45,257 nt of DNA from Methanobacteriota archaeon (GTDB lineage Archaea > Thermoplasmatota > Thermoplasmata > UBA10834 > DTMW01), in NCBI GenBank assembly GCA_011046235.1, contig DSAX01000053.1:1-45257 (forward strand), in the 5' to 3' direction. Both the position numbers and the translations under genes were made by a program. Below are positions 10,270 through 29,820 of the stretch, piece after piece (the first letter of the stretch is position 1; the number at the start of each line of letters is the position of its first letter). A model generated the notes under the pieces. It had not been told where the DNA came from. It did no database searches and was given only the letters and a program-made list of their open reading frames with translations.

Positions 10270-10449
10270 ATGTATTCTGATGCAGAAGAGATGGTCAGGG
10301 AGATCAAAAAGCTTCGGGAGGAGCTCAACCAGATGCGAGAGATCGTGAACATGCTCCTCAATGTGGTTATGGAAGAATCGGAGGAGGATGAGTTCGAACA
10401 AGCTCTCCTTCAGGACGACTCGGCGAAGCGATTCAACCTGTACAACTGA
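10270..10449 (+). CDS. Hypothetical small acidic coiled-coil protein (59 aa if started at the internal ATG)
   Basis: Part of listed ORF 10195..10449. The ATG at 10270 gives MYSDAEEMVREIKKLREELNQMREIVNMLLNVVMEESEEDEFE..., which has heptad character. No family recognised. Confidence 0.35.
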   Translation: MYSDAEEMVREIKKLREELNQMREIVNMLLNVVMEESEEDEFEQALLQDDSAKRFNLYN

Positions 10450-10569
10450 AGCTGTCAAGCAAAGAACTACGGCGGGCGTCGCTAATTATTCAGTCTATTG
10501 CCGAATCAGATTCCTGGGAGACAGGTCTAAGTCCGAATTCAGCTATCACGCCACTGCGGAGGCACGAGC

Positions 10570-11226: not shown

Positions 11227-11710
11227 GGCTAAAAAGACGCTTGTGGCCGATACTTCGGCCCTCTTCAACGCGTCCGATTTTCCGGCCCACTTCGATATAG
11301 TCGTCCCGCCAGGAGTAGTGGAAGAGCTTAGAAGATGGGGCATGGATCGGCGATTGGATATGCTTCTGGCCTCTAGAATCGAAGTCCGAATTCCGTTGAA
11401 CGGCTCGCTCGAAAAAGCCCGCAAAGCCTCCGAGGCGACAGGGGACATAGGCAGACTGTCAGATACCGACATCTCCGTCGTCGCCCTGGCGATCGAGCTC
11501 GAGGCGCCCGCCATCACGGATGACTACTCGATTCAGAACGTGATTAAATCGCTCGGTGGGAAGTTCCTCACGATGGAGAAGATCGGGATCAGGGATGTAT
11601 TTACTTGGGAGTTCCGATGCTCCGGCTGCGGCAAACTATTCAAAGAGAAAATCGATGAATGCGATGTCTGCGGGCACAGGCTGCGGTCCTGGCGCGCCAG
11701 GAAAAAATGA
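11207..11710 (+). CDS. nob1: Nob1-type endoribonuclease (PIN domain plus C-terminal zinc ribbon), 16S rRNA 3'-end maturation
   Basis: PIN acidic residues in LVADTSALF and LSDTDISVVALAIEL. C-terminal CSGC...CDVC ribbon. The size of about 167 aa and this architecture match archaeal Nob1. It overlaps the ThiI-like gene by 20 nt. Confidence 0.8.
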   Translation: MKDSTNEAKKTLVADTSALFNASDFPAHFDIVVPPGVVEELRRWGMDRRLDMLLASRIEVRIPLNGSLEKARKASEATGDIGRLSDTDISVVALAIELEAPAITDDYSIQNVIKSLGGKFLTMEKIGIRDVFTWEFRCSGCGKLFKEKIDECDVCGHRLRSWRARKK

Positions 11711-11718
11711 GCTTTAGC

Positions 11719-12804: not shown

Positions 12805-13517
12805 CTCTTCACGCCACTGAGCAGAAAAGCGCCGCCCATAGAAAGCAGCTTCCATTCGACATCTTTGAACCCCATTCCCCGCATGGATTCGGCATAGCAA
12901 CCGGGCGTTTCGAAGTGATCATATGTGACCCAGAGCGTGTCATAGGGATTGCCGTTCCACTCTTTCATCTCGCTTCTCGGTATGACGAACTTGGACAGGA
13001 AAGGGACCATGTTCTTCAGATAGGATTTGACCAACCAGCTCTTGAGCCGTCCCTCTCTTTTTGCGATATCGACTATCACGGCGACGCCGTCTTTCCTGAG
13101 CACCCTCAGCATCTCTCTGAGGCTCTTCTCCTTGTCCGAAAAATCTCTGAACGAGAACGAGCAGAAGATCCTGTCGAAGCTCTCGGTGGCAATGGGCAGC
13201 TCCTCCGCCACACCCGCTGCGAACTGAATGTTGCCGGCCGTTCTGCGCCTTGCGACTCCTATCAGCTTCTCGGACGGCTCGACGCAGACTACGCTCCTCC
13301 CCCTCAGAAGCATGGCGAAGCTACCCGGACCGGAGCCTATCTCGAGTATGTCGAGGCCCGGGCCAGAAAAATCGATCGCGCTCCTCCTCCATTTATCGGC
13401 CTGGAAGAGCGTGGAGAGTTCATTGACTCTGTCGTAGTAGTCCGATACCGCCTCGATCGACGATACGATTCGAAGCCATTCTTCTCGGTCGAGCCCGTCC
13501 CTGCTCAGGGCCAGCAC
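12801..13517 (-). CDS. ubiE: UbiE/MenG-family SAM-dependent (demethyl)menaquinone C-methyltransferase
   Basis: YDRVNELSTLFQADKWRR N-terminal signature of the UbiE/COQ5 family, SAM motif I LDILEIGSGPG, and the post-I acidic residue. Confidence 0.75.
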   Translation of the reverse strand: MLALSRDGLDREEWLRIVSSIEAVSDYYDRVNELSTLFQADKWRRSAIDFSGPGLDILEIGSGPGSFAMLLRGRSVVCVEPSEKLIGVARRRTAGNIQFAAGVAEELPIATESFDRIFCSFSFRDFSDKEKSLREMLRVLRKDGVAVIVDIAKREGRLKSWLVKSYLKNMVPFLSKFVIPRSEMKEWNGNPYDTLWVTYDHFETPGCYAESMRGMGFKDVEWKLLSMGGAFLLSGVKR

Positions 13518-13525
13518 CTCCCTGA

Positions 13526-14617
13526 TCAGATCGATCTGCCAATGATCAGTTTAGGCAGTTCCGCAAGTTTGTTCTTGAAAATGGAATCCTGAATTCCGTC
13601 CAGGTATTCGAGCCCGGCTTCCGCGTATCTGTGGGAGGCGTCGTAGGCGGCGTCCACGCCGCCGCTTTCCCTGATCATCGCGAGAAATTCTGCCGTCTGT
13701 CTTGCGCCGATGTCTCGGTTGCCCAGAACCCCGGGCAGCCTCCTGGCGACATCGGGGTCGTTCTCCGCGGCCAAGATGACAGGCAGGGTCATGTTCCCCT
13801 CCCTTATATCGGAGCCGGTGCGCTTCCCCAGACTCTTCTCATCTCCTACGATATCGAGTATGTCGTCCACGATCTGGAATGCGATCCCGATGTTCATCCC
13901 GTACCCGCCGAACGCCTTGATCTGATCACCGTTCCTCTCTGCCAGTCTGGCGCCCACCTGGGCAGAGGTCTTGATCGGATGGGCCGTCTTGCCCCTTATG
14001 ATCTTCATGTACTCTTCGACGGAGAGATCGGAGTTGTTCCTGTTCATGTACTGCATTATCTCCCCCTCGGCGAGCGATCTGCAGGACTCCGCGACGAGGT
14101 CCACGATGTCGGCTTCGTATTTCCCGCCCACGCAGAAGGCCATCGCGAACATGAAGTCTCCAGCCACAATCGCCTCGTGAAGCCCGAACTGTCGGTACGC
14201 TGCTCTCTTGCCCCGCCTCATCTCCGCACCGTCATTGATATCGTCGTGGATGAGCGTGGCCGAATGTATCAGTTCTATCGCGGCGGATATGTCGATTACG
14301 CTATCGATATCCTCTCCCATGAGCGATCTATGGGCCAATATCGCAAGGCTGGGACGAAGCCTCTTCCCCCCGGAATCCACCACGTGCAGCGCGACATCCG
14401 TGAGGATCTTCTGGGAAGAATTGATCAGTTCTCTCATGCGTCTTTCGACCGAGGCGAGCTCCTCCTCGAGACCGAGCTCCGAGGCCCATTGGCTCATGCA
14501 GGCCGACATATCAGGAAATCCGTACTTAACCCTGTCCTCTGGAACGGATTCGAGTTCTCTCGCTTCCGACTCTTCGGTCTCTCGCTGCAATTCGATCCTC
14601 TCAGACGGTAATGCCAT
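13526..14617 (-). CDS. trans-Polyprenyl diphosphate synthase (IspB/HepT-like, probably the quinone side-chain synthase)
   Basis: GGKRLRPSL, first Asp-rich motif LIHDDINDG, second motif FQIVDDILD. There are about 35-40 extra acidic residues at the N-terminus compared with what I expect, so the true start may be an internal Met (MSACMSQW...). Confidence 0.85.
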   Translation of the reverse strand: MALPSERIELQRETEESEARELESVPEDRVKYGFPDMSACMSQWASELGLEEELASVERRMRELINSSQKILTDVALHVVDSGGKRLRPSLAILAHRSLMGEDIDSVIDISAAIELIHSATLIHDDINDGAEMRRGKRAAYRQFGLHEAIVAGDFMFAMAFCVGGKYEADIVDLVAESCRSLAEGEIMQYMNRNNSDLSVEEYMKIIRGKTAHPIKTSAQVGARLAERNGDQIKAFGGYGMNIGIAFQIVDDILDIVGDEKSLGKRTGSDIREGNMTLPVILAAENDPDVARRLPGVLGNRDIGARQTAEFLAMIRESGGVDAAYDASHRYAEAGLEYLDGIQDSIFKNKLAELPKLIIGRSI

Positions 14618-14624: not shown

Positions 14625-16169
14625 TCAGCCGATCGGGAGCAGCCCGTTCAGCGCCCTCGCAGCCTCCAGCGCCCCCTCGAGGAACGGCTCCGGATAGAGT
14701 CCAATGAACACGGTCACGATCATCGCGATGACGATGGCGGCCTGAATCAACGGTGGAACCTTTATCCTATCTTGGCTTTGAGGATTATGTATGTACATGC
14801 TCTTTATTATTCTGGCATAGTAGAACAGGCTCAGGGCGCTGTTCAGTATGCCCGCTATGGCAAGCCAAACCAGCCAGCTTGCGCCCCCCGGCTCGCTCGA
14901 GCCGAATATGGCAGCGGAGAACAGAACGAACTTGCTGTAGAAGCCCGCGAGAGGAGGTATCCCCGCAAGAGAGAGCACGAAGATTGCCATGGCCAATGCG
15001 AGGAACGGAGCCCTTTTGCTGAGGCCGTCGAAGTCCTTCAGGTTCTCCCCGAATCCCCTGACCGTCAGGGCCAAGATCACGAAGAACGCGCCGCTCTTCA
15101 TCGCCGCATGCGTGATGACGTGCAATATCCCACCGGCGACCGCATACTCGCTTATCCGAACGAGTTCAGGAGATGACGGATCGTACACCGCCCATACCGG
15201 GAGCGCGATGAGTATGTACCCGGCCTGCGCGATGCTCGAGTATGCCAGCATCCTCTTCACGCTGTTTTGCTGGATTGCGACGAGGTTGCCCACGGTCATC
15301 GTCAATATCGCGATGATCCCGATTGCCAGGTCCCACTGCGCCTTATAGGCGAGAAGGGCGACTATGAATATCTTGAATAGCGCCGCAATCCCCATCTTCT
15401 TGGATGCAGCTGCGAGAAGTGCGGTAATGGATGTCGGGGCGCCCTCGTATACGTCGGGAGCCCACATATGGAACGGCACGGCTGCGATCTTGAAGCCCAG
15501 CCCTATTATCAGCATGGCGATGCCGAGCAGTACGATCGGGCCGTACTCGGCCCCCATCGCTCCGAGCTCGGTCAGGTTGGTCGTTCCGCCTGCGCCGTAG
15601 AGCAACGACATGCCGAATAGAGATATGGCCGAGGAGAAGCCGCCCACGATGAAGTACTTCATCGCGGCCTCGGTCGATCTCTTGACCGACTTCTGGAACC
15701 CGGTCAGCGCGTAGCTGGAGATCCCGGCGATCTCGAGCCCGAGGAATATCACGATGAGATCCCCGGCGGTGGCCACGAAGCTCATGCCGGTGACCGCGAT
15801 CAGCAGCAGGGCGTAATACTCGCCGTGGTTCCTCTCGCGTTTAATGTAATCAGGGGATACGAAGGCGACCAGCGCCCCGACGAATACGAATACGACCGTG
15901 AAGACCATGGAGAACGCGTTGACGGCGAAGATCGAGGTCTCCGGCGGCTGTTCCCAGAACAGGAACGGCACCAGGTTCTGAGTCTCCGGTATGAGCGCGA
16001 GGATCTCCATGACGCCGACGATGGTGAGCCCGATGATCACCCAATAGGCTATGCCTCTCCGCATCTTCAGCCATAGATCCAGCGCCGGGCATAACAGCGC
16101 GAATATCAGCAGCAGTATCTGCGGCATGAGCACTCCGAAGTATTCCGCAGCCGTGGCCGTCTCAGCCAC
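14625..16169 (-). CDS. nuoN: NADH:quinone oxidoreductase (complex I-like) subunit N
   Basis: Polytopic antiporter-like protein with FHMWAPDVYEGAPTSITALLAA. It is the last nuo gene and its start overlaps the nuoM stop by 8 nt. Confidence 0.9.
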   Translation of the reverse strand: MAETATAAEYFGVLMPQILLLIFALLCPALDLWLKMRRGIAYWVIIGLTIVGVMEILALIPETQNLVPFLFWEQPPETSIFAVNAFSMVFTVVFVFVGALVAFVSPDYIKRERNHGEYYALLLIAVTGMSFVATAGDLIVIFLGLEIAGISSYALTGFQKSVKRSTEAAMKYFIVGGFSSAISLFGMSLLYGAGGTTNLTELGAMGAEYGPIVLLGIAMLIIGLGFKIAAVPFHMWAPDVYEGAPTSITALLAAASKKMGIAALFKIFIVALLAYKAQWDLAIGIIAILTMTVGNLVAIQQNSVKRMLAYSSIAQAGYILIALPVWAVYDPSSPELVRISEYAVAGGILHVITHAAMKSGAFFVILALTVRGFGENLKDFDGLSKRAPFLALAMAIFVLSLAGIPPLAGFYSKFVLFSAAIFGSSEPGGASWLVWLAIAGILNSALSLFYYARIIKSMYIHNPQSQDRIKVPPLIQAAIVIAMIVTVFIGLYPEPFLEGALEAARALNGLLPIG

Positions 16170-17697
16170 CCCCTATCGCTCTGAGTATGATCGTCACCGC
16201 ATCACCGATTCTGTCGATCATGATAGCGGGCAATATCCCGAACAATGCGATCAACGCGATCAGTATCGCCATCGGGGCGGACTCGTACCAGTTCGCGTCG
16301 TGGATGTTCTCCGTCTCGATCTTGTCCGTGAGCGGTCCGAACATGGACCTCTGCAGCGCCCATAGGTAGTATCCAGCAGTGATCGCGACGCTGAGGATCG
16401 GCACCAGCAGCCACAGCCCCCAGTTGTTGAAGATTGCCCAGAAGGTCATGAACTCGGCCGCGAACATGACGAGGCCTGGAAGTCCCAGAGATGCCAGGAA
16501 CCCCGCGGTCATGTAAGTCGCCAGCTTCGGCATCTTCTCCGAGATGCCCCCGAGCTTCGGTATCATTCTGGTACCGCAATGATGCTGGACGACGCCGCAG
16601 GTCATGAATAGGACCGCGGTGACCAGGCCGTGGGCGAACATAACGAAGACGCCGGCGACGATACCGACATAGCTCAGCGTGGCGAAGCCCACCATCACGA
16701 AGCCCATATGGCTCACCGAGGAGTAGGCCACCATCTTCTTGAGGTCCTTCTGGGCCAGGCAGACCACCGCTGCGTACAGGATGCTCACGATACCGATCAC
16801 CGCCATGAGGGGTGCGAGATACGAAGCGCCCTCAGGCAAGGTCGGGATCGCGACTCGAATGAGGCCATATCCGCCCATCTTCAGCAGCAGCCCTGCCAGC
16901 AGCACGCTGCCCGCGGTCGGAGCCTCCACATGCGCATCGGGTAGCCAAGTATGGAACGGCACCATGGGCATCTTGACTCCGAAGCCGAACAGCAGGGCGC
17001 CGAACGCTATGATCTGGAACCCCCTCGTGAACCCTGAGGCCGCATCTCCGAGCTCCATCATGTTGAATGTCGTCGCGCCGGCGTTGAAGTAGATGGCCAT
17101 TATCGCAAGCAGCATCACGAGGCTCGCGACATGGGTATAGATGAAGAACTTGATCGAGGCGTAGTCCTTGTTCGGTCCGCCCCAGATGCCTATCAAGAAG
17201 TACATCGGGATGAGGACGATCTCCCAGAATATGTAGAATACGAGGTAGTCCAGAAGTACGAAGACCCCAGTGACTCCCACCTGCATCAGCAGTATCAGGC
17301 CGAAGTATTCCCTCGGCCTGCGGTCCACATCCCAGGAGAACAGTATCGAAACGAATGTCAACAGCGGGGTTATGAACAGCAGTGGCAGGCTGATGCCGTC
17401 GATCCCAACTGCGAATGATACCCCCAGGCTGGGAATCCACTCGTACTCCTCATAGAACTGCGGGTCCGCGAAAGCCTCCCCGTCCGGAATGGCGCCCCAG
17501 CTGAACGCGAAGATCAGCAGCACCGCGAATATGAGCGGTATTCCCGAGAATATGAGGCTGATCACGCGTATGATCGACATCGACCTGCCCGCGAGGAATA
17601 CCAGGATCGCTCCGATCAGCGGCAGGAATATCATGATGCTAAGGACCGGCAGGCCGGAAAGCAGATCCTGTGCGAAGCTCTGAGCGCCCTCTAACAT
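16162..17697 (-). CDS. nuoM: Complex I-like subunit M
   Basis: FHTWLPDAHVEAPTAGSVLLAGLLLKMGGYG signature; polytopic membrane protein. Confidence 0.9.
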   Translation of the reverse strand: MLEGAQSFAQDLLSGLPVLSIMIFLPLIGAILVFLAGRSMSIIRVISLIFSGIPLIFAVLLIFAFSWGAIPDGEAFADPQFYEEYEWIPSLGVSFAVGIDGISLPLLFITPLLTFVSILFSWDVDRRPREYFGLILLMQVGVTGVFVLLDYLVFYIFWEIVLIPMYFLIGIWGGPNKDYASIKFFIYTHVASLVMLLAIMAIYFNAGATTFNMMELGDAASGFTRGFQIIAFGALLFGFGVKMPMVPFHTWLPDAHVEAPTAGSVLLAGLLLKMGGYGLIRVAIPTLPEGASYLAPLMAVIGIVSILYAAVVCLAQKDLKKMVAYSSVSHMGFVMVGFATLSYVGIVAGVFVMFAHGLVTAVLFMTCGVVQHHCGTRMIPKLGGISEKMPKLATYMTAGFLASLGLPGLVMFAAEFMTFWAIFNNWGLWLLVPILSVAITAGYYLWALQRSMFGPLTDKIETENIHDANWYESAPMAILIALIALFGILPAIMIDRIGDAVTIILRAIGGG

Positions 17698-17700
17698 CTG

Positions 17701-19713
17701 TTACCACTCCCCCCATTCGAAAACGATAAGGAACAGCAGGAGCAGGCACCCACCGATCACGATCGCTGCGACATAGTTCTGCACCTGGCCGGTCTGCGAC
17801 CTGCGTATGAACGCGCCCGATTTACTGCTCAGCCAAGCCATCCCGTTGATCGCGCCGTCTATGACGTATCTGTCGAATATGTCCGCGACGAGCGATATGC
17901 CGTATATGATGTTGTACGCGAAGGCGTCGTAGAACCAGCTGATATAGTACCTCTCGGCAAGCAGCTTCTGGAGCTTCCCGGTGACTCCCGAGGCGAGCCT
18001 CGAGACGGAGAACGCCCCTTTGTAATAGATCGAATACGCCGTGAACAGACCGACCGCCGAGACGATCAGCGAGGCATAGGTCAGCGGGCTCGTGAAGATC
18101 TCCCCGAGCGACTCAAGCGGGTGGATCGCCTCCACCGCGACCGAGGAGCCTATCGTCGAGGATATGGAATCCGACATGAAGGAGAAGAATCCTCTGCCGA
18201 TGAAGAAGGCGAAGCCGGATACCGCTGCCAGAGATGCGAGGATCATCAATGGGACCGTCATCGAAACGGGTGATTCATGCGCGTGCGCATCGGACCTCTG
18301 CTTCCCGGTGAAGGTCATGAACCACATCCTGAACATGTAGAAGGCGGTCATGAATGCGGTCGCGACCCCCATGATCCAGAGTATCAGGAAAACGGTGCTA
18401 TAGCTCCCCGCGTCCTCGAACGCGTGGAAGGTGCTGGCAAGCACCTCGTCCTTCGACCAGAAGCCGCTGAAGGGCGGAATGCCCGCGATCGATAGAGAGC
18501 CTATGAGCATCGTGATGGAGGTGATCTTCATGGTCTTACCCAGACCCCCCATCTTCAGCATGTCGTTGGTGCCGACCGCGTGGATGACGCTCCCCGCGGC
18601 AAGGAATAGAAGCGCCTTGAAAAAGGCGTGGTTCATCATGTGGAATATCCCTGACGAGTACCCTGCTCCGAGGCCGTCGTGCCCCCCGTCGTGCATGAGA
18701 CCGGTTATTATCAGGCCGCCCGCTCCGAGCGCGAGCATCATGTACCCGAGCTGGCTGATCGTGCTGTAGGCGAGGACTCTCTTGATGTCGACCGCGACGA
18801 GGGCGTTGGTCGCCGCTATCAGGGCGGTGATGCCTCCGATAATCGCTATGAATGCGAGCGCGTCCGGCGTCTGCACGAGCATCGGGTACGACCTCGCCAC
18901 GAGGTAGACCCCGGCCTTGACCATGGTCGCCGCATGGATGAGCGCGGATACCGTGGTCGGGCCCTCCATCGCGTCTGGCAGCCATTCGTGCAGCGGGAAC
19001 TGCGCGCTTTTTCCAATCGCGCCGCCGAACAACAGGATCATGCTCAGGGTCGCCATGCCTGAGGACATGCCGCTTCCCTCCAGACTTCCCTCTGCGAATA
19101 GTTCCGAGAAGTCAAGCGTGCCCACATATCTCAGCAGGATGATCAGTCCCGACAGCAGCATGATGTCGCCGACGCGGGTGACTATGAACGCCCTTTTGGC
19201 GGCGCTTGCGGCGCTCGGCTTGTGCTTCCAGAACCCGATGAGCAGGTACGAGCAGAGGCCGACGAGCTCCCAGAAGATGAACATTTCAACGAAATTGTCC
19301 GCGAGTACGAGGCCGAACATGACCCCGATGAACAGGGCGATTTCCGCGTAGTACCTGCGCTTCGTCTCTCCCTCCCCGTGCATGTACCCGACGGAATATA
19401 TCACGACCAGAGTGCCGACCAGGGACACGACGAGCAGCATGACCGCGGTCAGCTGGTCGATCCAGATCCCGAATGTGAGCTCGAAAGATCCCGCGCTTAA
19501 CCAGGTCATTCGAGGCGAATCAGGCCCGGTCAGCGTATGACCGTTCAAGACATCGATGATGACCAGAATGGACAGGACGAAGGAGGCGGTCGACATTCCG
19601 ATGATGTACGGTGCACCGCCTTCCCAGATCAGCCATTTCTTCGGGACGAGCGAGATGATAAGGAACCCGATGATCGGAAAGACCGGGATCAGCCATGCGT
19701 AGTCGATCATCAT
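17701..19713 (-). CDS. nuoL: Complex I-like subunit L
   Basis: HEWLPDAMEGPTTVSALIHAATMVKAGVYL signature. At 670 aa it includes the C-terminal lateral-helix region. Confidence 0.9.
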   Translation of the reverse strand: MMIDYAWLIPVFPIIGFLIISLVPKKWLIWEGGAPYIIGMSTASFVLSILVIIDVLNGHTLTGPDSPRMTWLSAGSFELTFGIWIDQLTAVMLLVVSLVGTLVVIYSVGYMHGEGETKRRYYAEIALFIGVMFGLVLADNFVEMFIFWELVGLCSYLLIGFWKHKPSAASAAKRAFIVTRVGDIMLLSGLIILLRYVGTLDFSELFAEGSLEGSGMSSGMATLSMILLFGGAIGKSAQFPLHEWLPDAMEGPTTVSALIHAATMVKAGVYLVARSYPMLVQTPDALAFIAIIGGITALIAATNALVAVDIKRVLAYSTISQLGYMMLALGAGGLIITGLMHDGGHDGLGAGYSSGIFHMMNHAFFKALLFLAAGSVIHAVGTNDMLKMGGLGKTMKITSITMLIGSLSIAGIPPFSGFWSKDEVLASTFHAFEDAGSYSTVFLILWIMGVATAFMTAFYMFRMWFMTFTGKQRSDAHAHESPVSMTVPLMILASLAAVSGFAFFIGRGFFSFMSDSISSTIGSSVAVEAIHPLESLGEIFTSPLTYASLIVSAVGLFTAYSIYYKGAFSVSRLASGVTGKLQKLLAERYYISWFYDAFAYNIIYGISLVADIFDRYVIDGAINGMAWLSSKSGAFIRRSQTGQVQNYVAAIVIGGCLLLLFLIVFEWGEW

Positions 19714-19717
19714 TCTC

Positions 19718-20038
19718 TTACCACCTCAGGATATTGATCTTCGTGACATCGATCGAGTCGTGCCTCTTGTATAAGACGAGGAATATCGCGAGCCCGATGG
19801 CCACCTCGGCAGCCGCCACGGTCATCGACGCGAGGGCGAATATCTGCCCCATGGCGTCCGGATATCCGTGAAGCTCCGTGCTGTACGCGGAGAAGGTGAC
19901 GAGGCTGACGTTGGCCGCGTTCAGCATGACCTCGATCGACATCAGCACCAGTATGCCGTTCCGCGCCGTCAGCACGCCGTATGCTCCCACGGCCATCAGG
20001 AGGGAGGAAAATATCAGCCAATCGATCATCGGGATCAT
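19718..20038 (-). CDS. nuoK: Complex I-like subunit K
   Basis: 106 aa with three TM helices and GILVLMSIEVMLNAANV. ATGA overlap with the preceding gene. Confidence 0.9.
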   Translation of the reverse strand: MIPMIDWLIFSSLLMAVGAYGVLTARNGILVLMSIEVMLNAANVSLVTFSAYSTELHGYPDAMGQIFALASMTVAAAEVAIGLAIFLVLYKRHDSIDVTKINILRW

Positions 20039-20280
20039 TCTCTATCCTCCTCCTTTGCGAGGAACACGGCTCCGAGCAACGCCACGATCAGAAGCATCGC
20101 GAGAAGTATCATGAGGGGGCTGTATGCGGGGTCATCTTCATCGCCGAAGAACTGTTGTCCGAGCTCCTCGCTCGACGTGTCGTCGGGATGGGACGCCTGC
20201 CAATCCACCTGAAGGAAGATGGCGATCATGATGGCCGCAAGAAATGCCACCAGCGCGATCATCACCCTGTCCGATTTCAT
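20035..20280 (-). CDS. nuoJ: Complex I-like subunit J, C-terminal half (split nuoJ)
   Basis: 81 aa with two TM segments flanking an acidic loop, corresponding to the C-terminal part of NuoJ. ATGA overlaps on both sides. Confidence 0.75.
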   Translation of the reverse strand: MKSDRVMIALVAFLAAIMIAIFLQVDWQASHPDDTSSEELGQQFFGDEDDPAYSPLMILLAMLLIVALLGAVFLAKEEDRE

Positions 20281-20540
20281 TTCTCGCTCCCTCCCGGCAG
20301 ATCCCTCTTGGTGAGCATGATGGCGAACAGTATGACCACGACGATCGCCCCCACATAGACGAGTATCTGGACCAGCATCATGAACTCCGCTCCCAGCAGC
20401 ACGAAAAGTGCGGCAATCGCAAGAAAGCCAGTCGCCAGGAATATCACCGAATGGGTGATCTCCTTCGACCTCAGCATGGCCATTATCGAGACCAGGGTGA
20501 GTATCGCGAGAAACCAGAAGACGATCTCCGTCAGGGTCAT
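20277..20540 (-). CDS. nuoJ: Complex I-like subunit J, N-terminal half (split nuoJ)
   Basis: 87 aa with three TM segments: IVFWFLAILTLVSIMAMLRSKEITHSVIFLATGFLAIAALFVLLGAEFMMLVQILVYVGAIVVVILFAIML, a NuoJ N-terminal pattern. Confidence 0.8.
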   Translation of the reverse strand: MTLTEIVFWFLAILTLVSIMAMLRSKEITHSVIFLATGFLAIAALFVLLGAEFMMLVQILVYVGAIVVVILFAIMLTKRDLPGGSEK

Positions 20541-21511
20541 TTCTTACCAGCCCCCTTCTTACCAGCGTCGCCTTTGCCGGCCGATGTGAGCTTGGATTCG
20601 GGCACCATACTCAGTGCGTCGAACCTGCACGCGTTAGCGCACCTGCTGCACCCGACGCATTTCTCGAGCGCGAAGACCGCCCGCTTCTTCGGCTTGCCCT
20701 TCTTGCCGCCCGCAAGCGTCTTCTCCGTGCCTGGCATCTCCGCCATGTAAATCACCTGGGAAGGGCATGCCCTGAAGCACGCACCGCACCCGGTGCATTT
20801 CTCCAGCTCTAATACCGGCAGAGGCCGCTCGAACATGACGACGAGCTTCTCCCTCATCTCGATCGCCTTCTCGGGGCACACCTCGGCGCATTTTCCGCAC
20901 TGGGTGCAGATGGTGAGGTCGATTACCGGCATCCTCTTCCCGGTCTTGTCCACATCGACCATTCTGATGCACTGCACCGGGCATACCTTGGCGCACTGCT
21001 CCTTGCCCGTGCACTTGTCAAAATCGACGGCCGGCACCTTGATCGACTGTTTCGGCTCGTGTACGACAATGTCGTCCTTCCTAAGGGATTCTGGCTCGAA
21101 TGCCATTCCCTCTCTGTCGTATGATGAGAGCTCGTACTCCGAGGTCATTATCAGCGCGTCCGTCGGACATATTTCGACGCAAAACCCGCAGAAGAGGCAG
21201 CGGGCGTAGTCCACCCCGGGCCGCTCGATCTTCCCCAGCTCCGGATCGACGATCTTCTTCATCCACATGCAGTCATTCGGGCATATGTCCACGCACTGGC
21301 CGCAGCCGATGCATTTCGTGAAGCTCAGAAGGTGCTTCCCGCGGTATCTGGGGGGCAGCACCTGCCGCTCCCTCGGGTACAGGATCGTGTTCGGCCGCCC
21401 GCGGAGCGAGCATCTGACGAACTGGGTCAATGTGGTCAACATGGGCTTGAGGACCATGCCTGTGAAGGAGACCTTCTCCCTCCTTGGCCGGTCGCATATC
21501 TTATCGGCCAA
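20537..21511 (-). CDS. nuoI: Complex I-like subunit I with a C-terminal polyferredoxin-type extension and Lys-rich tail
   Basis: The NuoI core has T.LYPRER and two CxxCxxCxxxCP motifs (CIGCGQCVDICP, CLFCGFCVEICP). About 170 further residues carry CTGKEQCAKVCP (degenerate), CTQCGKCAEVCP, CTGCGACFRACP and CVGCSRCANAC. The protein ends in KGDAGKKGAGKK. The listed start is TTG immediately after the nuoH stop. Confidence 0.85.
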   Translation of the reverse strand: MADKICDRPRREKVSFTGMVLKPMLTTLTQFVRCSLRGRPNTILYPRERQVLPPRYRGKHLLSFTKCIGCGQCVDICPNDCMWMKKIVDPELGKIERPGVDYARCLFCGFCVEICPTDALIMTSEYELSSYDREGMAFEPESLRKDDIVVHEPKQSIKVPAVDFDKCTGKEQCAKVCPVQCIRMVDVDKTGKRMPVIDLTICTQCGKCAEVCPEKAIEMREKLVVMFERPLPVLELEKCTGCGACFRACPSQVIYMAEMPGTEKTLAGGKKGKPKKRAVFALEKCVGCSRCANACRFDALSMVPESKLTSAGKGDAGKKGAGKK

Positions 21512-22627
21512 TCAGAACACCCCCAGCGTCTTCAACACGACGGCGATCACGAGGTTGAGCATCGCCAGCGGCAGCAGCCGCTTCCATCCGAGGTCGAGTA
21601 TCTGGTCGGTCCTGATCCTCGGGAGCGAGGCGCGTATCCAGACGAATATCACGAAGACCATGTAGGCCTTGATCAGGAACCAGAACTCGTCCGGGATTAT
21701 CGCCGGGCCGTTCCATCCGCCGAGGAAAAGGGCGGCTGCGATCGCGCAGCCCGCGTACCCGCGGACATATTCGGTCATCATGAAGAACCCGAACCTCATG
21801 CCGCTGTACTCGGTAGTCCAGCCCTCGACCAGCTCCGCCTCGGCCTCCGGAAGATCGAACGGTATCCGCTCGACCTCGGCCACAATGCAGACCAAGAATA
21901 CCAGGAATCCGATGAACAGAGGCACCGCGTACCACATGTCCGCCTGAGCTTCCACTACGTCCACGAAGCTGAAGCTTCCCGCGAGGACGATGACGGAGGC
22001 GACGCTGAGCAGCAGCGGGATCTCGTAGCTCATCATCTGAGCCGCGGACCGCATTCCTCCGATGAGCGTGAACTTGTTGTTCTCCGCCCAGCCAGCGACC
22101 AGGATGGAGAACGGCGCAACGGCGAAAATCGCGAACGCGAGTATCACGCTTCCCGGGACGGGAGTCCCCTCGTCGGTTATTCCGAACTCGGGGCCGATCG
22201 GTATCGTCCCGAGTATCAGGATCGAGGAGCCGATGAATATGACCGGGGCGATGAAGTAGCTGAACTTGTCCGCCTTAATAGGCGTGATGATCTGCTTCAG
22301 GAAGAACTTGAGCCCGTCCGCGAAATTCTGGAAGTAGCCGAGAGGGCCGACATAGAACGGTCCTCGGAAGTCCCAGAACCTGGCGAGTAGCTTCCTCTCT
22401 ATCCAGATCAAAGTCACGACATTCAGAAGCGCCACTACTATGAGGAGTATGATCTCCATGAGGATCGTGAATATGCGCATGACGCCGGGAGAGGCGAGCC
22501 AATCCCCGAGCGAGTCGAAGGCTTCCCCTATGGAGCCCGGGATCAGCCATCCAAGGCCGTAGATGAAGAAGTTGACGATGTCAACCAGCAAATTTGTCAG
22601 GTCGTAAGATACGCTCCACAGGTCCAT
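21512..22627 (-). CDS. nuoH: Complex I-like subunit H
   Basis: Polytopic membrane protein with GWAENNKFTLIGGMRSAAQMMSYEIPL and ER.PFDL.EAE..LV.G motifs. Confidence 0.9.
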   Translation of the reverse strand: MDLWSVSYDLTNLLVDIVNFFIYGLGWLIPGSIGEAFDSLGDWLASPGVMRIFTILMEIILLIVVALLNVVTLIWIERKLLARFWDFRGPFYVGPLGYFQNFADGLKFFLKQIITPIKADKFSYFIAPVIFIGSSILILGTIPIGPEFGITDEGTPVPGSVILAFAIFAVAPFSILVAGWAENNKFTLIGGMRSAAQMMSYEIPLLLSVASVIVLAGSFSFVDVVEAQADMWYAVPLFIGFLVFLVCIVAEVERIPFDLPEAEAELVEGWTTEYSGMRFGFFMMTEYVRGYAGCAIAAALFLGGWNGPAIIPDEFWFLIKAYMVFVIFVWIRASLPRIRTDQILDLGWKRLLPLAMLNLVIAVVLKTLGVF

Positions 22628-22633
22628 GTCAAA

Positions 22634-23716
22634 TCACTTGTCCGTCTCCCCCATGCAGACGTCGATGCTGCCCATGATCGATACGACATCCGCGACCTTG
22701 TATCCGACGAGCATCTTCTTTGCCGCGGAAAGCGTCACGAAGAGCGGGCTTCGAACCTTCAGCCGATATGGCTTGTCGGTCCCGTCTCCGATCACATACA
22801 TGATTCCCTCCCCGCGCGGGTCCTCGACCCTGCCGATCGCGTCCCCCTCCGGGGCGTACATCGGGGTCTTGACTCTGACCGGTCCCTTTGGCATCTTTTT
22901 CAGCGCTTGCCTAACGATGTTGCAGCTCTCCCTCATCTCGTTCATTCTCACGACGTACCGGCCGTATACATCGCAGTCCGAGTGGCACTGAACCTCGAAG
23001 TCCATCTCGTCGTAGACCTCGTACGAGTTGTGCTTCCTGACATCGTACTTTACATTGCTCGCCCTGAGGGTCGGTCCTGTGACTCCGAGATTTATCGCGT
23101 CCTCGCGGCTGAGAATGCCCAGCCCCTCGCTCCTCATCAGGAAAATTTTCGAGTCGCGGTAGAGGGTCTCGTGCTCCTCGATGCGCTTCTCGAAGAAGTC
23201 TATCGCGCGTAGGCAGTCCCTCTCGAACTCGGGGGGCAGGTCTGCTGCTACACCGCCTATTCTAGAATAATTATAGGTCAGCCGGGAGCCGCTGAGCATC
23301 TGAAGCAGGTCCACCATTATCTCCCGGTCCCTCATCGCGAGGACGAACCCGGCGAGAAGGCCGATATCGGCCGCATATGCCGCGAGCCACATCATGTGCG
23401 AGGCGATCCTCTGGATCTCGATGGCCATGACCCTGATGTACTTGGCCCTCTCGGGGACTTCGACGCCGATCAGGTTCTCGACCGTCATGCAGTAAAGATG
23501 GTTCCAGGTTATCGATGAGCCGTAGCACAGCCTGTCGGTTATCGGGCCGATCTGGGTGTAGTTCTTGTTCTCGAATATCTTCTCCATGCCGCGGTGCAGG
23601 TAGCCGATCTCGGGCATGGCGTCGACTATGACCTCTCCGTCAACCTTGACCCTCAGGTTCCAGAGCCCGTGGGTCATCGGATGCTGGGGTCCCATGTTGA
23701 TCCACATTTCTGCCAT
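22634..23716 (-). CDS. nuoD: Complex I-like subunit D
   Basis: NMGPQHPMTHGLWNLRVKVDGE at the N-terminus and ...DVCMGETDK at the C-terminus. Confidence 0.9.
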   Translation of the reverse strand: MAEMWINMGPQHPMTHGLWNLRVKVDGEVIVDAMPEIGYLHRGMEKIFENKNYTQIGPITDRLCYGSSITWNHLYCMTVENLIGVEVPERAKYIRVMAIEIQRIASHMMWLAAYAADIGLLAGFVLAMRDREIMVDLLQMLSGSRLTYNYSRIGGVAADLPPEFERDCLRAIDFFEKRIEEHETLYRDSKIFLMRSEGLGILSREDAINLGVTGPTLRASNVKYDVRKHNSYEVYDEMDFEVQCHSDCDVYGRYVVRMNEMRESCNIVRQALKKMPKGPVRVKTPMYAPEGDAIGRVEDPRGEGIMYVIGDGTDKPYRLKVRSPLFVTLSAAKKMLVGYKVADVVSIMGSIDVCMGETDK

Positions 23717-23722
23717 TTGCCC

Positions 23723-24241
23723 TCACTCCAGATCCATCTTGAAGTCCTTCCTGAGCGGGAAGTACTCGTATTCCTGCGGCAGCAGTATCCTCCTCGGGTC
23801 GGGGTGGTTCGTGAACACGATGCCCATCATGTCGTACGCCTCGCGCTCGTGCCAGTTCGCGCCCTCCCAGAGAGGGGTGACGCTGTCGATCCTGGGATCA
23901 TCCTTCGGCACGCTCACCTTGACCTCCATGGTGCAGCAGTTGGTGTACGAGAAGATGTGATAGACCACTTCGAACCGGTCATCCCAATCCACGGCGCTCA
24001 GCAGGGAGAGGTGGTCGAACTCCATCGCGTCCCTGAGCAGCCTGCAGAGCTTCAGCAGCGACGGTCTTTCGGTCCTCAGGCGGACCATGCCCCTGCCTAT
24101 CTTCAAGTCAGAGATATCGCCGCCCATCTTTGCAGAGAGCTCCCTGCCTATCCTGCTCTCGATGCCGGCGACGACCCTCCTCGTGACCGTCACCTCGGTC
24201 TCCTCCCCCCTCAGATCGGATTTGCCCTGCAATCGATTCAC
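23723..24241 (-). CDS. nuoC: Complex I-like subunit C
   Basis: [19 protein letters not shown] and PLRKDF motifs; 172 aa. Confidence 0.9.
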
Positions 24242-24810
24242 TTCCTGATCCAGTCTTCAGTCAGGACCCCCTTCCTCTCCGCCCTGATCTTATCCTGAAG
24301 CTTGACGATCCCCTCGATCATCGCCTCGGGGCGCACAGGGCAGCCGGGTATGTAGACATCGACCGGAATGAACTTGTCAACCCCCTCTATGATGCTGTAG
24401 CTCTGCCAGAACGGTCCTCCGCTGATCGAGCACTCGCCCATCGCGACGACCCACTTCGGGTCCGCCATCTGGTCGTACAGCCTCTTCAGGTCGGGCTTGA
24501 GCTTCTTGGAAACAGGTCCGTTCACCAGCAGAATATCGCACTGCCTCGGCGTCGATCGGTATATGACGCCGAACCTCTGGGCGTCGAAACGCGGCGCAGA
24601 CGCCGCGCCCATCTCAAGGGCGCAGCACATTATGCCAAAATGCAGCGGGAAAAGCGAGTTGATCCTCGCCCATTGGAAGAAGTCGGTGAAAACGCGGTCG
24701 ACCGCCCTGCCAATTGTCGATCTCTTGAGCATGCGCCCGAACCAGTCATCGGCCCACTCAAGGAAGTCCTTTGAGCGCATGAGCATGACAGAGCCGATCT
24801 TCCCGCTCAT
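24238..24810 (-). CDS. nuoB: Complex I-like subunit B (N2 cluster subunit)
   Basis: [20 protein letters not shown] and [10 protein letters not shown] cluster-binding motifs. Confidence 0.9.
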
Positions 24811-25166
24811 ATCCAGATTATCTCTTCCTTCTTCAGCGCGTATGTTACCCCCACCATGAGAATCCCCAGGAACGATAACAGCATGATCTTAGCGATATCG
24901 CCCATGTCCGAGAACACGAGCGCCCACAGAATAACGAATATGCTGACCAGGTCGAACGCCACGAATATTATCGCGAACATGTAATATTGAAAGTGGAACT
25001 GGATTTTCGCCTCGCCGATTGGTACCTCACCGCACTCGTAGGTCTCCTGCTGTTTCGGGATTACCTTGAGCGGTCTGAAATATCTAGACAACCAGAACAC
25101 GATTACTGGAAGTGCCAAGGATACTACGGCAAATATCGCAAACGGGAGATACGTGTCCGAAAGCAT
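24807..25166 (-). CDS. nuoA: Complex I-like subunit A
   Basis: [32 protein letters not shown] signature. The start is set at the internal ATG (25166, [12 protein letters not shown]...) because a palindromic TATA-like box sits about 27 nt upstream. The 34-codon extension in the listed ORF is not NuoA-like. Confidence 0.85.
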
Positions 25167-25188
25167 CTGGGGGGACGAATACTCTAGT

Positions 25189-25198
25189 CCTATATAGG
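25189..25198 (-). promoter_or_regulatory. Candidate TATA box (CCTATATAGG) for the nuo operon, with leaderless-type spacing
   Basis: Palindromic TATA-like element centred about 27 nt upstream of the proposed nuoA ATG at 25166. Confidence 0.5.
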
Positions 25199-25359
25199 CA
25201 TTTTCGGCGACCGCCCGACGAGAAGACGAATAGAGAGGCAGGCAAATCGACACTGGCTTATGATCCAACAGTCACCTTTTCCGGGGATGATGACCGTTCA
25301 TCCTGGACGACGGTTCCGCGAGCTCCTCGGGATCTGCAGCGGTCGCGGTAGACCCACGA

Positions 25360-25393: not shown

Positions 25394-27103
25394 ATGCCGC
25401 TTTACGACCTCGTGCTCGTCCACGCGCCCAGCGTATACGACTTCAGACGCAGGGGCGGTCTGTACGGCCCCGTTGCCGACCTCATACCTTCGACACCAGT
25501 ATTTGAGATGTACCCGATCGGGTTCACGACAATCGCATCGCTTCTCAATGGGGAAGGATACCGCGTAAGGATCCTGAACCTGGCTTCGCACATGCTCGCG
25601 GACGGTCGCTTCGACGCGGAAAGGGCGCTCCGGAAAATCAGGGCCCGCGTCTTCGGGATCGACCTTCACTGGCTGCCGCACGCCCACGGCAGCCTCGAGA
25701 TCGCCAAGCTTATCCGGAGGACGCATCCCGGATCGCGCATCGTCATGGGCGGTTTCAGCGCCACTTATTATCACGATCAAATATTGAGAGGGCACGGACA
25801 GGTAGATGCGGTATTCCTGGGAGACTCCGCCGAGCTGCCCATGCTGGAGTACATGAAGGCCATGGACTCCGGAAGGCCAATGGATCATGTCCCCAACCTC
25901 GCGTTCAGAGACGACCACGGCGCAGTCAAAAGCAACGGGATCACGCACATCGTCAGTGATTTGGACGAGGTCGGTTTCGACTACGGCTTCATGGTAAGGA
26001 GCGCCATCAGGAGCCTTGACCTGACTGGTCATCTTCCATACCTGGACTGGAAGCGAAATCCGATGCTCCTCGTCAGCACCGTGAGGGGGTGCTCCCACGG
26101 ATGCCTTACGTGCATGGGCTCCTGCGGGTCGTTCCAGAGGAACTTCGGAAGGGCGAAGCCGGCGTTCAGAAGCCCCGAGAAGGTGATCGAGGACATCGCG
26201 CAGATCGAGAGCTATTTCACGGGAGCGATCTTCATACTCGGAGACATCCAGCAGCCGGGGAGCGGCTATGCGGAAAGGCTTCTGTCGCTTCTGCGCGAAC
26301 AAAGGCCCAGGAGCGAGATCGCATTCGAGTTCTTCAGCCCGCCGGCCGGGGGTCTCATCGACATGATCTCCGGATCGGTCGAAAGGTACAATGTCCAAAT
26401 ATCCCCGGACAGCCACGACCCAGGAGTCAGGGGAGCGATAGGGAGGGGGTATTCCAACATGTCGCTGGAAAGCTCGATATCCAGGTTTTTAAAATCGGGG
26501 GCGAATAGGGTGGACCTTTTCTTCATGATCGGTCTCCCAGGTCAGGATGCTGAGTCCGTCTTGCAGACGGTCGAATACAGCTCAAGGCTCATGAAGGAAA
26601 TGGGGGTCAGGGAGCGGCTCATGCCGTTCATCTCTCCGCTGGCTCCGTTCATAGACCCCGGTAGCTGCGCCTTCGAGGAGCCCGATAAGCACGGATACCG
26701 CCTCTTCGCGAGGACGCTTGAGGAGCACAGGAAGCTGCTGACGATGCCCAGCTGGAAGCATGTACTGAACTACGAGACCAGTTGGCTCACCCGGGAGCAG
26801 ATCGTCGATTCGACCTACTCAGCGGGTCTGAAGCTGAACGACGCCAAGGAGGCGGTCGGCGCGATCAGCGGCGAATCCGCGTCGGCTGTTCGAGGAAGGA
26901 CGAAACTCGCCTGGGAGGCGGTCAGGAAGATCGACCTGGCGATGCAATCCGCCGATCCTGAGGAGGCGCTCGGATCAATTGGAGAGGAGATCGGGGACCT
27001 GAGCGAGTCCACAGTGTGCAACAAGAGGGAACTGGACTGGACGAAGAGGAGCATATATTGGAGCATGCCGCGCGCACTGATCGCTGCCATACAGGGAAAG
27101 TGA
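25394..27103 (+). CDS. B12-binding-domain radical SAM enzyme (class B-like architecture), substrate unknown
   Basis: The N-terminal Rossmann-like region (YDLVLVHAPSVYDF ... GYRVRILNLA ... RIVMGGFSATYY) is typical of the cobalamin-binding domain of this family. It is followed by the CxxxCxxC motif RGCSHGCLTCMG. Confidence 0.8.
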   Translation: MPLYDLVLVHAPSVYDFRRRGGLYGPVADLIPSTPVFEMYPIGFTTIASLLNGEGYRVRILNLASHMLADGRFDAERALRKIRARVFGIDLHWLPHAHGSLEIAKLIRRTHPGSRIVMGGFSATYYHDQILRGHGQVDAVFLGDSAELPMLEYMKAMDSGRPMDHVPNLAFRDDHGAVKSNGITHIVSDLDEVGFDYGFMVRSAIRSLDLTGHLPYLDWKRNPMLLVSTVRGCSHGCLTCMGSCGSFQRNFGRAKPAFRSPEKVIEDIAQIESYFTGAIFILGDIQQPGSGYAERLLSLLREQRPRSEIAFEFFSPPAGGLIDMISGSVERYNVQISPDSHDPGVRGAIGRGYSNMSLESSISRFLKSGANRVDLFFMIGLPGQDAESVLQTVEYSSRLMKEMGVRERLMPFISPLAPFIDPGSCAFEEPDKHGYRLFARTLEEHRKLLTMPSWKHVLNYETSWLTREQIVDSTYSAGLKLNDAKEAVGAISGESASAVRGRTKLAWEAVRKIDLAMQSADPEEALGSIGEEIGDLSESTVCNKRELDWTKRSIYWSMPRALIAAIQGK

Positions 27104-28608: not shown

Positions 28609-29820
28609 TTGAACGTCTCAAGAATTGATTCTCAAACGGTTTCTGTATCTAGCCCACACGAAATCCACGGATTGCTCTCGGGATGCGTGGCAAATAGACA
28701 ATCCGCAGTGACCGTGAACGCGGATATTTTGCAGACATACGACTACCGGAGCATTCCGACTGCCGCAAGGATCGACCTTTCGAGAATGGCACCAGTATAT
28801 GTCAGCCAAGCGGAAAAGATCGCCAGGTTGGGGCCGGGCGCGAGGTATTCATCGCTCTTGGCGGAAGCGGAGAAGGTCGGAATGACGCCGGAGTTCGAGC
28901 CCGTGCTCGGAATCGATTTCACCATGTCCGATTGGGCGCATGAGTCGCTTCGCATGATATCAACATCCAGATCCGGACTTGACGGGGTAATACGAAACGT
29001 AAAGGCAATCGCGCCCAGAAGCTCCTTTCAGACGGGGTTCGATACGACTCCCGCGAACGGAGGAGGATACGACCTCACAAAGCTCTTCATGACGAGCTCC
29101 GTCCTGCTGGGGGTTCCCTACGAGTTCTCGGTACCGCTGAGACCGATCCCGGAGAGCCGATCATCGGCCGAGTACAGCTTCGACGATCTCGAAAAAGCAA
29201 TAAATGCGGGGGTCGAGATACACAGGAGCGGACTTGCGGCAGCAATCGATCTCTCGGATAACGGGCTTTTACAGATCATCCGAGGAGCAGAGGGAAAAAC
29301 ATCAAAGGGATATCTTATCAGGGTGCGCATAGAATGTTCCCAGATGGCGGTCGATAGCTCTGAAAAAATGGTCTCGGAGATCGCCAATAAACACGGGGGA
29401 AAAAGTGACAGCTCAGACCTATCCGAAACCAAGCTTATTTCGCCGGAAGAGGTGAGCGATAACGCCGTGATCCTCGGGATCTTCGTCTGCGATACCCCAG
29501 GCGTCGTTGGGCTTGTAAAAAGACTTTCTAAAGGTCTTTCAAAATCGAAAACATCCCTTAAATTCTCAATACCTGACCTATCGCCGAATACATGTACGAT
29601 GATCCCAGTCGCGGTCGGCAAGGACGCGGCAAGTCTGACGGGGCAGATAGGGCAGCTCCTATCAAACACGAGGATACCTTTGAGGGGCAACAGGAGTTGG
29701 AATCCGCTGCTCGGAGATTCAGACGCCTTCCAAAGAAGGGAGCTGATTACCAGCATTAAAAGATATCTGGATCCCTCAATGATCTTAAACCCTCAGGTCC
29801 TAATGGAGGCGGTACAGTGA
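28609..29820 (+). CDS. GlcE-like FAD-binding (PCMH-type) subunit with a degenerate flavin-binding N-terminus
   Basis: GLDGVIRNVKAIAP...GGGYDLTKLFMTSSVLLGVPYEFSVPLRPIPE matches the G.V....V....G.......GYDL..L..GS.G.LG...E..L.L.P pattern of GlcD/GlcE. The C-terminal IKRYLDPSMILNP is typical of the family. The Gly-rich GGG(H/T)S-type loop of the catalytic subunits is absent. Confidence 0.65.
   Translation: MNVSRIDSQTVSVSSPHEIHGLLSGCVANRQSAVTVNADILQTYDYRSIPTAARIDLSRMAPVYVSQAEKIARLGPGARYSSLLAEAEKVGMTPEFEPVLGIDFTMSDWAHESLRMISTSRSGLDGVIRNVKAIAPRSSFQTGFDTTPANGGGYDLTKLFMTSSVLLGVPYEFSVPLRPIPESRSSAEYSFDDLEKAINAGVEIHRSGLAAAIDLSDNGLLQIIRGAEGKTSKGYLIRVRIECSQMAVDSSEKMVSEIANKHGGKSDSSDLSETKLISPEEVSDNAVILGIFVCDTPGVVGLVKRLSKGLSKSKTSLKFSIPDLSPNTCTMIPVAVGKDAASLTGQIGQLLSNTRIPLRGNRSWNPLLGDSDAFQRRELITSIKRYLDPSMILNPQVLMEAVQ

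Follow-up and report, generated by a model that had tools for sequence, protein, structure and literature searches.

The window analysed here is a stretch of 45,257 nucleotides (contig DSAX01000053.1 of assembly GCA_011046235.1, forward strand) from a Methanobacteriota archaeon that GTDB places in the Thermoplasmatota (Thermoplasmata; UBA10834; DTMW01). It contains an operon for an 11-subunit complex of Fpo/Nuo type, and our subject is one gene of that operon, nuoI. In its product, a NuoI core with two iron-sulfur (Fe-S) cluster motifs is followed in the same reading frame by two ferredoxin-like domains with four more. The gene and the parts of its product are as follows.

20537..21511, minus strand: nuoI/fpoI-like gene, 324 amino acids, TTG start, six Fe-S cluster motifs (list of open reading frames, TIGR01971, Pfam Fer4)
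21068..21406, minus strand: canonical NuoI core, residues 36-148 (phmmer against PDB, Foldseek, Cys census)
20834..21049, minus strand: extra ferredoxin domain A, residues 155-226, with motifs 1 and 2 (Pfam Fer4, AlphaFold2)
20978-21013, minus strand: motif 1, residues 167-178, CTGKEQCAKVCP
20873-20908, minus strand: motif 2, residues 202-213, CTQCGKCAEVCP
20597..20833, minus strand: extra ferredoxin domain B, residues 227-305, with motifs 3 and 4 (alignments, Cys census, PDB matches)
20762-20797, minus strand: motif 3, residues 239-250, CTGCGACFRACP
20669..20743, minus strand: conserved basic β-hairpin inserted in domain B, residues 257-281, AEMPGTEKTLAGGKKGKPKKRAVFA (charge and sequence census)
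20624-20659, minus strand: motif 4, residues 285-296, CVGCSRCANACR
20540..20596, minus strand: C-terminal helix and Lys-rich tail, residues 306-324, ending in KGDAGKKGAGKK (AlphaFold2, alignment)

The core has two standard CxxCxxCxxxCP motifs (C67/C70/C73/C77 and C105/C108/C111/C115, for clusters N6a and N6b), and all eight cysteines are invariant in an alignment of 43 homologues (about 49-69% identity), to which the conservation counts given below also refer. The model of NuoI, NDUFS8 and NdhI (TIGR01971) is matched with 171.9 bits against a cut-off of 113.05, over residues 38-143 only; likewise, NdhI, Nqo9, NuoI and NDUFS8 chains from the PDB are aligned by phmmer to about residues 36-145 only, and Foldseek superimposes the core on E. 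coli NuoI with a root mean square deviation of 2.9-4 Å. The place of the gene, between nuoH and nuoJ of a nuo/fpo operon, is also that of a NuoI subunit. FpoI of F420H2 dehydrogenase (NF040612) is matched with 110.1 bits, below its cut-off of 180, and on these scores the product is an Fpo-like I subunit by context, outside the Methanosarcina-type FpoI equivalog.

An extension of about 170 residues with four extra Fe-S motifs had been proposed in an earlier, sequence-only reading of this DNA, and all four motifs are found where that reading put them. Alignment with the NuoI family sets the limits of the standard core at residues 36-148 and the start of the extension at residue 151; the span 20540-21061 corresponds exactly to residues 151-324, about 175 amino acids in which two ferredoxin-like 2x[4Fe-4S] domains follow the core. 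In the whole product Pfam recognises six stretches of Fer4 (PF00037, E 8e-37), as well as Fer4_7 and Fer4_9. In an AlphaFold2 model (mean predicted local distance difference test, pLDDT, 77.8; predicted template modelling score 0.68), three consecutive β-α-β domains of ferredoxin type, with pLDDT mostly 80-95, occupy residues about 60-122 (core), about 156-223 (domain A, where the β-α-β elements have pLDDT 81-91) and about 230-304 (domain B), so that the protein looks like a string of three beads, ending in a short helix and a disordered tail.

Sequence matches of the extension in the PDB are MvhB, FwdF, RnfB and PsaC; MvhB and FwdF rank at the top, and MvhB, FwdF and RnfB are modules known to conduct electrons or to interact with ferredoxin. 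Residues 185-305 match chains of FwdF, RnfB and PsaC (phmmer); the best Foldseek match of the full-length model is the polyferredoxin FwdF (E 5e-10). The extension also scores against the model of PorD/KorD delta subunits (TIGR02179, E 6e-30). Profile comparison by hhalign aligns domain A with the core (E 5e-21) and with domain B (E 9e-23), similar scores for either origin by duplication. With three consecutive 2x[4Fe-4S] domains the protein exceeds the two that would define a polyferredoxin; it reaches 81.8 bits against the FwdF equivalog NF042909, far from the cut-off of 375, and is, as judged by these models, polyferredoxin-like in architecture only.

The complement of cluster ligands is well preserved. 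The window protein has 23 of the 24 ligand cysteines, and 22 of the 24 positions are invariant in the alignment, including all eight in domain B; variation is confined to the second Cys in each of motifs 1 and 2. Motif 1 of the window protein has K170 in place of its second Cys, which confirms the earlier remark that one Cys is missing, perhaps in a 3Fe-4S or degenerate site, a reasonable one in our view. At position 170, 27 of the 43 sequences have Cys; the whole subclade of the window has K, R, H or I there, and one sequence of the other subclade has S. At position 205, 31 sequences have Cys, and some of those in the other subclade have H, E, Q or A. Absence of the second Cys is a classic sign of a [3Fe-4S] cluster, or of a [4Fe-4S] cluster with a non-Cys (Asp or His) ligand, and not of decay. 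Since K170 replaces this Cys, the first site of domain A may be of either kind, and a [3Fe-4S] or three-Cys cluster seems likelier there than a degenerate site. Thus subunit I is predicted to bind six clusters, five in full four-Cys sites and one in a three-Cys site.

The same missing ligand, in motif 1 in the subclade of the window or in motif 2 in some of the other, is what could be said for regarding the extra domains as ferredoxin-fold remnants that brace a peripheral arm lacking NuoG, NuoE and NuoF and transfer no electrons. We regard this as very improbable: the other 22 ligand cysteines do not vary, motifs 3 and 4 are complete, and loss of the second Cys is typical of functional [3Fe-4S] or Asp/His-ligated clusters.

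The sequence-only reading had itself named an error that would undo it, a separate ferredoxin gene joined to nuoI by a stop or frameshift missed near 21061. The gene is a single unbroken reading frame across the junction between core and extension. A search of 5.8 billion proteins found about 93 protein clusters of 300-330 amino acids that align with the product over its full length (53-75% identity); their sources are independent assemblies from JGI, ENA, NCBI and Logan, and the named ones belong to uncultured Thermoplasmata. When GTDB species were scanned, each by one genome, the long form turned up in 44 Thermoplasmata genomes, closed chromosomes included. The residues that flank the junction (P140, R144, D146, E152 and P160) are invariant. 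Finally, nuoI fits exactly between its neighbours: the TGA of nuoH abuts the TTG start of nuoI without a gap (TGATTG), and the TGA stop of nuoI overlaps the ATG of nuoJ (AAATGA), an arrangement that couples nuoI translationally to both. Because the fused form recurs in independent assemblies, its junction is conserved and the fit of the gene is exact, and as nothing in favour of an assembly or annotation artefact turned up, we reject that explanation, whose chance we consider negligible. Two plus-strand open reading frames over the same DNA, 20244-20750 and 20793-21209, are shadow frames; homologue support is overwhelmingly for the minus-strand frame.

The most conserved element of the extension other than the cysteines is a basic hairpin between motifs 3 and 4, with the consensus EMPGTEK-x3-DG-x3-KPKKRAVF (EMPGTEK..GKKGKPKKRAVF). 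Its strands are at residues 254-259 and 275-280 in the AlphaFold2 model, and the GGKKGKPKKR stretch, at residues 267-277, lies inside this region. M259, P260, G261, G269, K273, K275 and K276 are invariant, and the net charge is +3 to +5 in 43 of 43 homologues, which makes the hairpin a candidate docking surface. The tail KGDAGKKGAGKK at residues 313-324 has pLDDT below 50 and is predicted to be disordered. Earlier attention had gone to this tail as the docking site. It is present as described; it is, however, restricted to the subclade of the window (P0001-P0019) and absent from P0021-P0090, the larger sister subclade ending at ...EMPGVRK. We therefore rank the tail as a subclade-specific feature, and the hairpin takes its place as the element conserved across the clade.

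The six-cluster architecture is conserved in uncultured Thermoplasmata, namely Ca. Gimiplasmatales/UBA10834 and relatives; UBA10834 now bears the former name (PMC9239135). The earlier suggestion to trace the taxonomic distribution of the extended form is thus answered by one architecture in one operon in 44 species-level genomes, among them isolate UBA10834 and RBG_19FT_COMBO_56_21. The nearest relatives of the window, L001 and L002, have about 70% identity and form a distinct subclade with it. The genus COMBO-56-21, sister to Methanomassiliicoccales, is described as an anaerobe that has HdrA-D, MvhAGD and the Wood-Ljungdahl pathway, and Ca. Gimiplasmatales as encoding ferredoxin-producing systems, HdrABC/MvhADG and the Wood-Ljungdahl pathway (both PMC11264602).

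The operon that surrounds nuoI (14625..25268, minus strand; nuoABCDHIJKLMN without E, F or G) consists, besides nuoI itself, of the following genes, identified by Pfam for each reading frame.

24807-25268, minus strand: nuoA
24238-24810, minus strand: nuoB
23723-24241, minus strand: nuoC
22634-23716, minus strand: nuoD
21512-22627, minus strand: nuoH
20277-20540 and 20035-20280, minus strand: nuoJ in two reading frames (87 and 81 amino acids), the N- and C-terminal halves of PF00499
19718-20038, minus strand: nuoK
17701-19713, minus strand: nuoL
16162-17697, minus strand: nuoM
14625-16169, minus strand: nuoN

The same split of J is found in Methanomassiliicoccales, where the parts are named fpoJ-N and fpoJ-C (PMC4153887). 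The 44 loci have a common gene order: UPPS, Lrp, a HdrD/GlcF-like CCG gene on the opposite strand, mobB, a B12-radical-SAM gene and nuoABCDHIJJKLMN, then polyprenyl synthase, a ubiE/menG-like methyltransferase, geranylgeranyl reductase, PIN and thiI.

With A, B, C, D and H-N present and E/F/G, FpoF and FpoO missing from the locus, the complex is of the 'headless' 11-subunit kind. The absence of nuoE, nuoF, nuoG and fpoF in or beside the operon, noticed already from the sequence alone, holds. Pfam found no NuoE, NuoF, NuoG or FrhB/FpoF domain in any reading frame of at least 150 amino acids in the window, and neither NuoE, NuoF and NuoG of a Nitrospirota locus nor Archaeoglobus FqoF, used as tblastn queries, had a match in the window or within 10 kb of nuoI in the 44 loci.

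Additional Fe-S domains on subunit I are not peculiar to this clade. Among 1.84 billion representatives, many NuoI homologues of about 245-300 amino acids have four motifs, that is, one extra 2x[4Fe-4S] domain; a profile search gave 519 protein clusters at E <=1e-20, and most of the 120 listed are 242-254 amino acids long, the named ones among these 120 being Methanomassiliicoccaceae and Methanomethylophilaceae. Methanomassiliicoccus is among the four-motif clusters, and its locus (L081; fpoI at 10001-10756, 251 amino acids) is syntenic with the window. The Methanomassiliicoccales locus shares the B12-radical-SAM gene, fpoABCDHI, the split J, KLMN, polyprenyl synthase, geranylgeranyl reductase, PIN and ThiI, and, like the window, it lacks FpoF; it differs in that FpoI has one extra domain (242-254 amino acids, four clusters) and a shorter basic loop, and neither domain A nor the Lys tail. 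On these sequences, the one-domain, four-cluster form is universal in Methanomassiliicoccales FpoI. The FpoI proteins of about 242-254 amino acids (P0098, P0095 and P0323-P0433 included) have four motifs, which amounts to two more predicted clusters than are usually drawn.

A form of the same kind occurs in Archaeoglobus sp. JdFR-37, a metagenome-assembled genome (locus L045), where FqoI of the F420H2:quinone oxidoreductase (9989-10666, 225 amino acids) has a NuoI core and one extra 2x[4Fe-4S] domain of the domain B type. In the alignment, domain B has its homologue in the one extra domain of Methanomassiliicoccales FpoI and Archaeoglobus FqoI, where the basic loop is shorter; domain A, absent from these four-cluster forms, has been inserted after the core and ahead of domain B. 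The FpoI of Methanotrichaceae has a Lys/Ala-rich tail only. Extra-cluster I subunits, as far as can be told from their motifs, recur in archaeal complexes and are not unique to the organism of the window. Another six-motif NuoI, of 514 amino acids, is encoded in an unrelated archaeal nuo-like operon (L084, 4736-20665, JGI metagenome 3300009513), which also codes for a NuoA of 478 amino acids and four antiporter-like (Proton_antipo_M) subunits.

A full-text literature search returned no description of extra Fe-S domains on NuoI, FpoI or FqoI, though a mention outside its coverage is possible, and a 2024 survey of archaeal fusion proteins gives nuoBC(D) fusions and no fusion of NuoI with a polyferredoxin. 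The six-cluster subunit I is apparently undescribed, yet it elaborates a widespread theme. Polyferredoxins are known as electron wires of complex-I-type enzymes from Eha/Ehb and Rnf; as such wires are familiar and the one-domain form exists in cultured methanogens, the six-cluster form is a variation on a known theme. The polyferredoxins of Eha and Ehb (EhaP/EhaQ, EhbK), MvhB and FwdF likewise consist of tandem 2x[4Fe-4S] domains that serve as an electron wire on an enzyme related to complex I or of methanogenic type, and an EhaQ-annotated protein is among the sequence matches of the window NuoI; unlike it, they are separate polypeptides with 6-14 clusters, not fused to a NuoI homologue. In RnfB, C-terminal polyferredoxin domains form the ferredoxin-facing entry or exit, and residues 202-302 of the window protein match 9eri_B (E 2e-13); RnfB belongs to a different complex and has a different N-terminal domain, and the likeness is at the level of Fer4 domains only. 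The N-module of complex I (NuoE/F/G) and the NdhS/NdhV/NdhO site of NDH-1 are functional analogues in that they bring electrons to N6a; the extension has no homology to NuoE, NuoF or NuoG, and NDH-1 uses small accessory proteins without clusters.

We propose, with a probability of roughly one half, that the extension serves as an Fe-S wire built into the subunit and as an arm on which reduced ferredoxin, or a partner of ferredoxin type, docks. Two 2x[4Fe-4S] domains lengthen subunit I of this 11-subunit Fpo/Nuo-like proton pump in frame, and in the proposed mechanism their four extra clusters would carry the N2 <- N6b <- N6a chain further out into the cytoplasm, forming a covalent polyferredoxin wire. 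The Lys/Arg-rich hairpin that protrudes from the terminal domain, aided in the subclade of the window by the flexible Lys tail, would draw in a low-potential acidic donor, most likely reduced ferredoxin, and electrons would run down the chain to N2 and on to a membrane acceptor, probably quinone, driving proton translocation. The architecture, its conservation, the pattern of Fe-S ligands, the operon around it and the lack of EFG and FpoF genes at the locus are established from the sequences; that the sites hold clusters, how far apart these lie in the assembled complex, which way electrons run and what serves as donor and acceptor are inferred.

The proposal fits the input-gene-free locus, the resemblance to RnfB, FwdF and MvhB, and the reported oxidation of ferredoxin by the 'headless' complexes of Methanomassiliicoccus and Methanothrix. 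The Fpo-like complex of the former is reported to oxidise reduced ferredoxin, and modelled to interact directly with HdrD (PMC7374477). Methanothrix (Methanosaeta) also has a complex without FpoF and a basic C-terminal extension (KKKAAAAKAKKAKA...) on subunit I; that tail, in a protein of 181-193 amino acids, is without Cys motifs or extra clusters. The clusters of Methanothrix FpoI and FpoB have been proposed to take electrons from reduced ferredoxin (PMC10470525). Welte and Deppenmeier (2011) reportedly proposed this lysine tail as the docking site.

Several points weigh against this proposal. The Lys-rich tail, as said, is not kept across the clade. Photosynthetic NDH-1 takes ferredoxin electrons with a two-cluster I subunit; because NDH-1 and, by proposal, Methanothrix Fpo manage with two clusters, four extra ones are needless for ferredoxin oxidation as such. 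Ferredoxin, most likely the donor, is assigned by analogy. In Archaeoglobus sp. JdFR-37, the four-cluster FqoI coexists with FqoF, a FrhB-like, F420H2-oxidising protein of 350 amino acids with its own N-terminal Cys motifs, encoded directly after FqoI (10681-11733); the place that the extension takes in the window here borders on the gene for the F subunit, and the window locus has no such gene. As the two occur together, the extension is not an anticorrelate of an F-type input subunit, and anticorrelation with fpoF, which the sequence-only reading had suggested checking, is rejected as a rule. What stands of its built-in electron-input module is the conserved, polyferredoxin-like extension at a locus with no EFG or FpoF nearby.

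Since JdFR-37 FqoI adjoins FqoF, a homologue of domain B can act as an adapter to a dedicated dehydrogenase subunit, and the extra domains of the window protein may similarly be a fixed bridge to a specific soluble enzyme encoded elsewhere, with no free ferredoxin involved. The partner might be a FrhB/FpoF-like flavoprotein, HdrABC-MvhADG, 2-oxoacid:ferredoxin oxidoreductase or CODH/ACS. A four-cluster chain is longer than simple ferredoxin docking needs, the similarity to PorD/KorD delta subunits points in the same direction, and Gimiplasmatales encode HdrA-D and MvhAGD (PMC11264602). On the other side, no gene for a candidate partner is conserved beside the operon in the 44 loci, and what is conserved on the surface is a basic hairpin of a generic kind, such as acidic ferredoxins would call for. 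We hold a fixed bridge to be possible, at clearly lower odds than the ferredoxin wire.

The acceptor end of the complex suggests a quinone. NuoD shares GPQHPxxHG, and the tyrosine of its DRLCY aligns with that of SRWDY in NdhH; we take this His and Tyr to be quinone-site residues. NuoB keeps the cysteines in its CC...C...CP positions, presumably the ligands of cluster N2. The NuoD pattern, together with the ubiE-like and polyprenyl synthase genes, suggests that the membrane acceptor is of quinone type. In almost every locus nuoN is followed, on its own strand, by genes for polyprenyl synthase, UbiE/MenG-like methyltransferase and geranylgeranyl reductase (11719-14617, minus strand, in the window); the Methanomassiliicoccus locus L081 lacks the methyltransferase, which hints that the Gimiplasmatales-type clade, unlike methanogens, makes a methylated quinone as acceptor.

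Upstream of nuoA, by about 4-6 kb, lies a gene for a HdrD/TfrB/GlcF-like protein with two CCG domains and a Fer4 dicluster (31418-32572, plus strand). About 30 of the 44 related loci have a homologue, on the strand opposite to nuoA, and those without one are mainly loci with a short upstream flank; the gene may have a bearing on the Fpo-like/HdrD model of Methanomassiliicoccales. By analogy, the extension could be an electron output or branch to such a CCG thiol-disulfide or 2-hydroxyacid oxidoreductase, rather than the donor side; the published Methanomassiliicoccus model, in which the Fpo-like complex contacts HdrD (PMC7374477), concerns organisms with the one-domain extension. We find this unlikely. 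The entire 20-kb neighbourhood is syntenic across the clade, which makes the proximity of the gene to nuoA weak evidence; the gene is divergent, with two unrelated genes between it and nuoA, and the Methanomassiliicoccus fpo locus does not contain it. Together with its neighbours in the window it makes up a glcD/E/F-like set, suggesting a separate 2-hydroxyacid dehydrogenase, and the quinone-site pattern of NuoD is intact, with quinone-type biosynthesis genes after nuoN. The glcE- and glcD-like FAD genes (28609-29820 and 29895-31418) stand beside the HdrD-like gene only in the window, L001 and L002.

A bolder and doubtful idea, to which we give slightly more credit than to such an output branch, is that these 'headless' 11-subunit complexes are not headless at all. 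Subunit I may have grown its own N-module, one domain in Methanomassiliicoccales and two in Gimiplasmatales, where the six-cluster wire would be about as long as the NuoG/NuoF chain, and may dock a large ferredoxin-type partner, e.g. HdrABC-MvhADG, CODH/ACS or the HdrD-like protein, in an unrecognised respiratory supercomplex. Specificity would then come from the number of domains and the basic hairpin.

The electron donor of 11-subunit complex-I-like enzymes in archaea and many bacteria is a long-standing question, in which ferredoxin has been assumed mostly by analogy; a conserved covalent arm of four predicted clusters with a basic hairpin gives a concrete experimental handle on it. The predicted number of clusters on subunit I rises from two (Methanothrix, Methanosarcina) through four (Methanomassiliicoccales, Archaeoglobus) to six (Gimiplasmatales), a series that may be regarded as a natural experiment in the evolution of complex I input modules, and any model of how the Methanomassiliicoccales, as gut methanogens, conserve energy should take in the two extra FpoI clusters.

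Some other genes of the window deserve mention. A B12-binding radical SAM protein (25394-27103, plus strand) belongs to the TIGR04190 equivalog (Ta0216 family, 624 bits), and its gene adjoins nuoA in Gimiplasmatales and Methanomassiliicoccus loci alike. Near the beginning of the window are genes for a CARDB-domain protein of 693 amino acids (82-2163, plus strand) and an FG-GAP/Big_9/CBM96 protein of 1894 amino acids (3113-8797, minus strand), both probably located at the cell surface, and, between them, for a small GTPase of the Ras/Roc family (2274-3098, plus strand; 274 amino acids; Pfam Ras, E 3.7e-35), here in an archaeal genome.

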